64,000 bases of DNA from positions 32,001-96,000 of the forward strand of contig CAWGLD010000005.1 of NCBI GenBank assembly GCA_963823335.1. Reading direction: 5' to 3'. Source of the DNA: an uncultured delta proteobacterium (GTDB lineage: Bacteria > Desulfobacterota > Desulfobacteria > Desulfobacterales > B30-G6). Shown piece by piece: positions 54,465 through 55,922 of this stretch; positions within the stretch are counted from its first letter, which is position 1; every line of letters starts with the position of its first letter. The notes below the pieces were generated by a model, which did not search any database, was not told the DNA's origin, and saw nothing but the letters and a program-made list of their open reading frames with translations. Both the position numbers and the translations under genes were made by a program.

Positions 54465-55408
54465 GTAAGAACCGTGCCTGTTTCCATGCTGCATCCACAC
54501 AGATACTCTTTTGTGGCCAGGCATTTTCCCGAGGCGCCTTGAAGCTCTTCGATGAGAAGTGCGCCTTTACCCGTGGCCACAAGCATTTCATCCGGAAAAG
54601 ACATGAGCACGGTGCCGGGTGCCTCATGGGTTTCCTTGTCCAGGCATTTTGATCTGTATATTTTCAGCCGTGTGTCACCGCAGAACGTAAAGGCACCGGG
54701 CCAGGGGTTGATACCCCGGATGAAATTTGCAATATCGCTTGCCGGCAGTCCCCAGTTGATACGGCCGTCTTTTTTTTTCAGCATTGGGACATAGGATGCT
54801 GCAGCTGGATCCTGGGCTGTGGAAACGAGCTTTCCGGTGGCGAGCTTTTCCAGTGTTTCCAACAGCAGACAAGCCCCTTCCCGGGCCAGTTTGTCATGAA
54901 GTGTTACAGAAGTGTCTTCGGGAGAGATCTGCACAGTTTGTTGCAGAAGGATGTCTCCGGTGTCGAGGCCTTCATCCATCATCATGGTTGTAACGCCGGT
55001 TTCTTTTTCTCCGTTGATAATTGCCCATTGAATTGGAGCCGGACCCCGGTACCTGGGAAGCAGTGATGCGTGAACATTGATGGCCTTGAAAGGAGGGAGT
55101 TCAAGCAGACGTTTGGGCAGAATCTGTCCGAAGGCGACAACGACGAGCAAATCCGGTTTAAGGTCTGCAATGACGTCAAGAAACGTATCTGGTTTAACGC
55201 TCTCGGGCTGCGAAAAACCATATCCATAACGAATAGCCGACTCCTTGATCGGAGAGGGCATGATTTTGCGCCCACGCCCACTGGGCCTGTCCGGTTGCGT
55301 TACCACCAGAACAATATCATGGCGGCTTTCATGGAGAGCCTGCAGGGAAGGGACCGCAAATTCAGGTGTTCCCATGAATACGACCTTGAGTGGTGTTGTG
55401 GTTTCGAT
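54461..55408 (-). CDS. fmt: Methionyl-tRNA formyltransferase; probable ATC start at 55408
   Basis: LKVVFMGTPEFA, TQPDRP.GRG, NVHASLLPRYRG.APIQ, LDTGD. Confidence 0.96.
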   Translation of the reverse strand: METTTPLKVVFMGTPEFAVPSLQALHESRHDIVLVVTQPDRPSGRGRKIMPSPIKESAIRYGYGFSQPESVKPDTFLDVIADLKPDLLVVVAFGQILPKRLLELPPFKAINVHASLLPRYRGPAPIQWAIINGEKETGVTTMMMDEGLDTGDILLQQTVQISPEDTSVTLHDKLAREGACLLLETLEKLATGKLVSTAQDPAAASYVPMLKKKDGRINWGLPASDIANFIRGINPWPGAFTFCGDTRLKIYRSKCLDKETHEAPGTVLMSFPDEMLVATGKGALLIEELQGASGKCLATKEYLCGCSMETGTVLT

Positions 55409-55409
55409 A

Positions 55410-55922
55410 CTACTCTCCCCGTTTTATCTGTTTCTGTATACGTCTGGCGTAAAGCTGTCTCTTGAGCGCACTGATCCGGTCGATGAAAAGTTTGCCCTTC
55501 AGATGATCTATTTCGTGCTGCAGAACAATGGACAAGAAATCGTGAGCCTCAAAGCGAAGCAGTTTTTCATTCCTGTCGTAGGCTTCCACCAGGATCGAGG
55601 CAAAGCGTTTAACATCCGAGCGATATTCCGGAACACTCAGACAGCCTTCATTTTCAGACAACACGTCCCCTTCGCTTTCGATAATCCGTGGGTTAACCAG
55701 GACCTTTATGGAACGGTCTTCGTCCTGAGGTGAAATGTCATATATGAGCAAGCTCCGGTCGATGCCCACCTGGATCGCAGCCAATCCTACCCCGGGTGCT
55801 TGATACATGGTTTCCCCCATGTTGTCGATAAGTTCCTGAAGGGCACCATCAATATTCTCAACCGGTTTTGTGGGTTGTTTCAGAAATATGTCAGGGTAGG
55901 TTACTATGTCGAGTATGGCCAT
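55410..55922 (-). CDS. def: Peptide deformylase
   Basis: GVGLAAIQ, EGCLS, QHEIDH. Confidence 0.98.
   Translation of the reverse strand: MAILDIVTYPDIFLKQPTKPVENIDGALQELIDNMGETMYQAPGVGLAAIQVGIDRSLLIYDISPQDEDRSIKVLVNPRIIESEGDVLSENEGCLSVPEYRSDVKRFASILVEAYDRNEKLLRFEAHDFLSIVLQHEIDHLKGKLFIDRISALKRQLYARRIQKQIKRGE

Follow-up and report, generated by a model that had tools for sequence, protein, structure and literature searches.

The 64,000 nucleotides analysed here, hereafter the window, come from an uncultured delta proteobacterium of the Desulfobacterales (GenBank assembly GCA_963823335.1, contig CAWGLD010000005.1, positions 32,001 to 96,000) and carry on their minus strand the peptide deformylase gene def, followed by the methionyl-tRNA formyltransferase gene fmt, whose product formylates initiator tRNA. 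They raise the question of the codon at which translation of fmt begins. Gene callers choose an ATG (55375-55373) that specifies the internal methionine of an FMGTP motif, residue 12 (Met12) of a longer reading frame, whereas an original prediction made from the DNA letters had placed the start upstream, at a non-canonical ATC (55408-55406). Our comparisons indicate that fmt very probably starts at this ATC in the genome of the window and in its genus, g1. Comparative support for the proposal is strong and comes from the conservation of the codon, its distance to a Shine-Dalgarno (SD) sequence, the open structure of the start region, the lack of an alternative, and the first β-strand of the protein.

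The def–fmt junction

The def coding sequence, identified as an open reading frame and by TIGR00079 (163.9 bits, cut-off 103.95), spans 55922-55410 of the minus strand, including its TAG stop codon (55412-55410). Its last codons contain the SD sequence GGGGAG (55420-55415), the core of which, GGAG (55418-55415), stands 6 nucleotides (nt) before ATC; a single nucleotide separates the def stop from ATC. On the minus strand, the junction reads AAA CGG GGA GAG TAG T ATC GAA ACC ACA ACA CCA CTC AAG GTC GTA TTC ATG GGA ACA CCT. Upstream, the fmt frame is closed by a TAA (55426-55424), and the N-terminus of Fmt must necessarily lie downstream of it. The codons that follow the TAA in this frame are AAC GGG GAG AGT AGT ATC GAA ACC ACA ACA CCA CTC AAG GTC GTA TTC, and between the TAA and ATG 55375 the minus strand of the window has no in-frame ATG, GTG or TTG. 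All elements of the junction as originally described, namely the def stop, the GGAG, the 6-nt gap, the ATC and the absence of a canonical codon, are right to the base.

The longest fmt open reading frame with a canonical start encodes 304 residues (MGTPEFA...) and lacks the residues LKVVF. The coding sequence proposed here (55408-54461), which is recognized by TIGR00460, comprises 315 codons plus the stop. The ten codons between ATC and the annotated ATG (55405-55376; ETTTPLKVVF) would encode a short variable tail and most of β-strand 1. The ATC itself, proposed as the initiation codon for its conservation in the family and its freedom from read variants, would be translated as formylmethionine (fMet) by the ordinary initiator tRNA.

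The annotated start lies within the first β-strand of Fmt

Against TIGR00460, the NCBIfam equivalog model of Fmt, the ATC-started protein scores 304.1 bits (cut-off 201.5); its residues 7-307 correspond to positions 1-305 of the 315 in the model, with position 1 on the leucine of LKVVF. The domains PF00551 and PF02911, the latter the C-terminal Fmt domain, were precomputed for the window's protein. Residues 3-300 of Escherichia coli Fmt (PDB 1FMT/2FMT) align to residues 6-303 of this protein (SLRIIFAGTPDFA over PLKVVFMGTPEFA), and the core motif HxSLLPxxRG is found as INVHASLLPRYRGPAPIQ opposite INVHGSLLPRWRGAAPIQ of 1FMT. The protein is the sole Fmt in the genome, the assembly of which is 94% complete; the second match is partial, 28% identical, and represents another formyltransferase.

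In the alignment with 1FMT, the annotated methionine lies opposite the internal alanine of SLRIIFAG and the residues upstream of it lie opposite SLRIIF. An AlphaFold2 model (26 aligned sequences, mean predicted local distance difference test score, pLDDT, 80.2) places the first strand at residues 8-13; in this model Met12 is the fifth residue of the strand, and a start there would cost four of the six strand residues. A complete N-terminal fold of the nucleotide-binding type before G-T-P is obtained only with the ATC start. The profile and the 1FMT alignment thus bear out the earlier remark that the annotated start, MGTPEFA, omits the first strand LKVVF. Further, the five codons before the ATG (residues 7-11) are kept as protein across the family, with the pattern (L/F/Y)(K/R)(V/I)(V/I/A)F, but vary synonymously, arginine being encoded by AGG, AGA, CGC and CGA. 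Since the protein is kept while its codons change synonymously, we conclude that the stretch before the annotated ATG is coding.

These observations bear on the possibility that ATG 55375 is the real start, yielding an Fmt of 304 residues that lacks most of strand 1. It is the sole canonical start available to fmt here, and gene callers made the same choice for 49 of the 120 database clusters nearest to the protein; these begin at MGTP and include 31 of the 35 with an identity of 73% or more. Yet the codon falls inside the first strand, follows five codons conserved at the protein level, has no SD sequence before it (the preceding bases are CTCAAGGTCGTATTC), and encodes a methionine that is general in the FMGTP motif of fmt genes starting upstream (79/79 loci). 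The upstream residues are needed in the fold, and we regard a start at the annotated ATG as highly improbable.

ATC is invariant in genera g1 and g3

In a genome search covering 40 relatives, the family of the window (f1) was represented by 15 genomes, 10 of genus g1 (including the window), one of g2 and four of g3. To obtain a sample that did not depend on the start, we scanned metagenome contigs with Fmt residues 150-315 only, which gave 72 loci, 64 of them with the N-terminus; loci at least 72% identical were considered g1-like, and the start codon played no part in the selection of contigs. ATC is present in 14 of the 15 family genomes (10/10 in g1, 4/4 in g3) and in all g1-like (11/11) and g3-like (7/7) metagenome contigs. 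After removal of four duplicates from the 32 listed ATC loci, 28 distinct junctions remain and ATC is found in 28/28. It lies 11 codons before the FMGTP methionine, or 10 codons in two g1 genomes (G008 and G009) due to a one-codon indel.

In the 14 genomes, the codon after ATC is GAA, GAG, AAC or GTA, and the invariance of ATC stands against free variation at residues 2-8. Among the first 100 codons, only four others are likewise a single invariant codon across these genomes. In the long open reading frames of the window, isoleucine is encoded by ATC, ATT and ATA in 48%, 34% and 18% of cases, respectively; within a variable tail, an ordinary isoleucine codon should drift.

Besides the g3 cases described below, 10 of the 19 distinct g1-like loci have no canonical start at all before the first strand. 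In 30 of the 32 listed loci, the SD core is matched exactly over four or more nucleotides at a distance of 4-10 nt before ATC; the two exceptions (L004 and L133) have G-rich runs in the same place.

Fmt genes outside the family and reliability of the sequence

For comparison, a canonical start was scored in other fmt genes if it preceded the methionine of FMGTP by at least four codons; the usual distance was 5-14. All 148 fmt loci examined from outside the family (not de-duplicated) had a canonical start before the first strand. Such a start is present in 15/15 loci from other families of the order, in 10/10 further families (G017 had no fmt match, so that 25 of 26 families were seen), in 79/79 loci from diverse bacteria (80 loci, one of which ran off its end), and in 44/44 other metagenome contigs. 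The matches in the scan of genome contigs with the whole of Fmt were listed on the universal VFMGTPEF motif at no more than 55% identity, and therefore form a background set rather than kin. The ATC feature is thus confined to one family, placed in the Desulfobacterales by database names, and to two of its three genera. Of the suggestion that ATC might prove conserved when the junction is aligned across the Desulfobacterota, conservation in a single family holds, whereas generality in the phylum does not. No relative was found to have ATG at the ATC codon.

A sequencing error had been a further concern. Positions 55406-55408 are covered without a listed variant by contigs of three DNA studies (X1 record 2, X3 records 6 and 7, X4 record 13) and by a contig from one RNA-library run (X7 record 22, 55187-55438). 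The ATC is not an assembly or sequencing error. One of the contigs, X3 record 7, represents a strain variant in which the def stop has changed from TAG to TAA and the in-frame TAA is gone, as in other g1 species, while ATC is kept. The RNA-library contig bridges the junction and fits a single def–fmt transcript, although by itself it shows neither transcript end nor strand nor translation start.

The proposed ATC start does not depend on an adjacent def stop

In 12 of the 14 ATC-bearing family genomes, the def stop lies 1 nt before ATC. This arrangement would suit an origin of Fmt from ribosomes that have just translated def, either by termination and re-initiation at the def stop or by a +1 frameshift or readthrough giving a Def-Fmt fusion. 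Re-initiation in E. coli is reported to use initiator tRNA and to be reduced by IF3 (PMC2268962), and L003-L009, seven of the nine other g1 genomes, have an fmt frame that runs back into def for 41 codons without a stop, probably by chance. In the window and in g3, an in-frame stop shuts the fmt frame five codons before ATC, leaving four def codons for a shift; inspection of these four codons by eye, without a scan, revealed no slippery site of the kind used in programmed frameshifting (prfB type).

More decisive is a subclade of g1 in which a spacer separates the two genes. It comprises G008 and G009, with five g1 loci (L010, L011, L131, L132 and L133). In L010 and L011, the two in which def was located, def ends about 110-140 nt upstream of fmt and the AT-rich spacer has stops in all three frames; the upstream sequences of L131-L133 resemble those of L010 and L011 and differ from the junctions that abut def. 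All five loci have AAGGGGA, AAGGAG or AGGGGG at a distance of 6-9 nt from ATC-GAR; in L010 and L011 it is AAGGGGA or AAGGAG, 6 nt and ATC-GAA. In L011, L131 and L133, the 29-45 open codons contain no ATG, GTG or TTG.

A stop near the start is therefore not a feature of all members, L010 and L011 being the exceptions, and because these two keep SD and ATC beyond the spacer, ATC is independent of an adjacent def stop. Frameshifting or readthrough from def cannot yield Fmt in L010 and L011, since stops fill all frames of the spacer. We also considered a mini-reading frame ending beside ATC in the spacer lineages, but the only candidate, a TAG 2 nt before ATC in L010, closes a frame of just two codons. 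Production of Fmt by def-derived ribosomes is thus very unlikely as the general route. Where def abuts fmt, adjacent re-initiation may add to SD-driven initiation, but it cannot be a requirement. The coupling of the fmt start to def that was part of the original prediction is accordingly dispensable, SD and ATC being kept in all five loci of the spacer subclade.

Initiation context

The fmt start region is less structured than shuffled sequences (z +1.75; of 200 shuffles, 195 fold equally well or better), and in the centroid structure the SD sequence and ATC are unpaired. Such openness is expected where 30S subunits have to be recruited without assistance. A start controlled by a riboswitch or hairpin was considered and set aside, as folding gave no structure that was stable or otherwise remarkable.

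In principle, AUC could serve as a full-strength start if it were read by an initiator-like tRNA of its own, with anticodon GAU. ARAGORN detected 46 tRNAs in the genome, three of them with anticodon CAU, of which one has the GGG/CCC anticodon stem of initiators; the single GAU tRNA is a tRNA-Ile with an ordinary elongator stem. No initiator-like tRNA able to read AUC was found among the 46 tRNAs detected in the 94% complete assembly, in which one could be missing, and we give this explanation almost no credence. Since no such tRNA was found, fMet-tRNA would have to read AUC despite a mismatched third base.

In the same genome, the IF3 gene infC (L112, G000:C1, 1452-1470) has a comparable start: an in-frame TAA is followed by AGGAGGTG, 5 nt and ATA, and there is no canonical start. 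IF3 in this organism thus starts at ATA, the kind of IF3-sensed start usual for infC, and fmt would respond in parallel.

Start codons in genera g2 and g3

Several points weigh against the assignment of the fmt start to ATC or against the properties ascribed to this start, and most concern the other possible codons. First, the genomes compared are kin, and 28 junctions are far fewer than 28 independent events; the N-terminus at ATC is a position derived by comparison, and the weakness and IF3 sensitivity of AUC are carried over from E. coli and Streptomyces. Second, an ATG, GTG or TTG occurs sporadically, 11-25 codons upstream of ATC, in 9 of the 19 distinct g1-like loci. These codons are not conserved and, where def abuts fmt, lie inside def; none of those inspected by eye in L005 and L010 had a recognizable SD sequence upstream, although no scan of these codons was made. 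Third, in seven of nine distinct g3 loci (8 of 11 listed: L013-L015, L138-L140, L142 and L161), a GTG or ATG is found three codons upstream of ATC, at position −14 relative to the FMGTP methionine. The start in g3 is therefore ambiguous: ATC could be an additional start there, or simply an ordinary codon. Fourth, g2, which lacks ATC, is nested with g1, so that the start state has changed at least twice.

In the g2 loci (L012, L136 and L137), the ATG of fmt overlaps the def stop (ATGnnTAA), no SD sequence precedes it, and the codon at position −11 is AAA. The −14 codon of g3 occupies the same position as this ATG and arises from the penultimate codon of def, which in these loci is always GGT or GAT and never another glycine or aspartate codon. 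It could represent an additional start or a state of transition. The purine run of g3, however, abuts the −14 codon (0-1 nt) but stands 4-10 nt from ATC, and two g3 loci (L016 and L141) have no upstream canonical codon, nor do some 18 g3-like clusters in the databases that are called at MGTP. This spacing and the loci without a −14 codon favour ATC in g3 as well, where it is invariant among variable neighbours.

Taken over the family, the alternative would be that fmt uses one of these other codons, a sporadic upstream ATG, GTG or TTG or the −14 codon of g3, and that ATC is an ordinary isoleucine codon. In its favour, the −14 codon recurs at the position of the g2 start. In the window and in 10 of the 19 distinct g1-like loci it is impossible for want of such a codon, and in g3 it has to contend with the loci, spacing and invariance just described; we consider it barely tenable.

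In a tree of Def and Fmt, computed without the N-terminal tail, the family forms one clade (support in the Shimodaira-Hasegawa-like approximate likelihood ratio test, SH-aLRT, 98) with g3 as sister to g1 and g2 (92), and the genera have support values of 99-100; the ATC lineages hence do not make up one unbroken clade. We refrained from assigning ATC or the −14 ATG as the ancestral state, as the grouping of g1 with g2 has an SH-aLRT of only 92 and the states conflict. Across the family, a weak codon and a strong SD sequence go together: the ATC lineages have a strong SD sequence, the g2 ATG has none.

Relation to known non-canonical starts

To our knowledge, established non-canonical starts are known for very few bacterial genes. 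The sequence-level features of the group formed by infC, pcnB, sigR and ebpA, namely the absence of a canonical alternative, the SD distance and conservation among relatives, are all found in fmt here, which on these grounds would belong with them among the genes whose non-canonical start is conserved.

A close parallel among these is infC, like fmt a core gene of initiation with a conserved near-cognate AUH start and a good SD sequence that annotators missed. They differ in that the product of infC itself senses the codon and closes the loop, whereas Fmt does not inspect start codons and any loop would be indirect. IF3 is reported to repress non-canonical starts, and autoregulation of infC to rest on an ATT start in E. 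coli and an ATC start in Streptomyces (PMC5472188).

The sigR gene of Streptomyces has a GTC start, which according to Feeney et al. 2017 (PMC5472188) is repressed by IF3 and keeps SigR below its antisigma factor RsrA. As in fmt, the non-canonical start is conserved, and it was misannotated in all genomes. The keeping of SigR below RsrA has its counterpart in Fmt below Def, which here is a proposal; for sigR, proof came from mutagenesis, Western blots and infC* mutants (PMC5472188), whereas the case for fmt is comparative. In addition, GTC differs from ATG at two bases, while the ATC of fmt is a third-base near-cognate. In pcnB of E. coli (AUU) and ebpA of Enterococcus faecalis (ATT), a rare AUH start is described as holding the protein down (PMC4447247). 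These genes are unrelated to fmt and, as presented there, single-species cases, whereas the ATC of fmt is conserved across a family of genomes.

In the canonical def–fmt operon, as seen in the 25 other families of the order, the gene order and the tight junction are the same, but fmt has an overlapping or adjacent ATG or GTG start instead of ATC with a strong SD sequence. Full-text literature searches yielded no report of a non-canonical fmt start, although supplementary tables of surveys (e.g. Hecht et al.) might list one. Our analysis would thus add a core translation gene with a near-cognate start, conserved across a family of uncultured marine Desulfobacterales of the sulfate-reducer type, and it illustrates that conserved signatures of SD plus AUH can be found from sequence alone.

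A possible link between Fmt, Def and IF3

On the reading favoured here, the SD sequence GGGGAG in the last def codons would place the 30S subunit on ATC 55408-55406, where the ordinary fMet-tRNA (CAU) would pair with AUC despite the mismatch at the third codon base. The product would be a 315-residue Fmt starting Met-Glu-Thr-Thr-Thr-Pro-Leu-Lys. In E. coli, AUC, AUU, AUA and CUG are reported to initiate at 1-2% of AUG, or at 0.02-3% in other constructs, and AUC-started GFP was found by mass spectrometry to carry an N-terminal methionine (10.1101/063800); in this preprint by Hecht et al., infC and pcnB are the only genes named as confirmed E. coli cases.

Being near-cognate, AUC would presumably be a weak start discriminated by IF3, which would give a low rate of Fmt synthesis relative to Def from the same operon; with falling IF3 activity this rate would rise in step with that of infC (ATA). 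Initiation of fmt may thus be weak and IF3-sensitive and keep Fmt below Def. A weak start that sets the ratio of Def over Fmt would have a rationale in the literature, which offers a reason for low Fmt relative to Def: Fmt without enough Def is described as toxic in the yeast cytoplasm, and loss of Fmt as conferring resistance to actinonin (PMC7949028). In E. coli, very low Fmt is reported to compromise the selection of the initiator (PMC6393288). The locus would thus offer a natural case in which to ask why a weak start is kept for a formyltransferase encoded beside a deformylase. Autoregulation of fmt by Fmt itself, which had also been suggested, found no support.

More speculatively, fmt and infC could form a small IF3-sensed module with AUH starts, in which Fmt is held below Def so that formylation never outruns deformylation. 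We regard this as a tentative and rather doubtful extension. If true, a drop in IF3 would raise IF3 and, with it, the capacity for formylation of initiator tRNA, in a translational circuit linking start-codon fidelity, formylation and deformylation that is undescribed for any bacterium.

Database entries and the def stop codon

Among the 120 nearest protein clusters, there is neither one of 315 residues nor one that starts at ATC. The truncated entries include the NCBI-named P0062 and P0106. Truncated public Fmt entries of this kind, which lack a structural strand, will cause errors in structure prediction, in family models and in completeness checks.

Two minor observations concern the end of def and the tRNAs of the genome. 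The def stop is TAG in the genome of the window and TAA in the seven nearest g1 genomes (L003-L009), and both tRNA-Sec(UCA) and tRNA-Pyl(CUA) are among the 46 tRNAs detected. If UAG were read through in this stretch (window 55365-55412, minus strand), def would grow by 15 codons, as far as a TGA, and translation of def would carry ribosomes across the fmt start.

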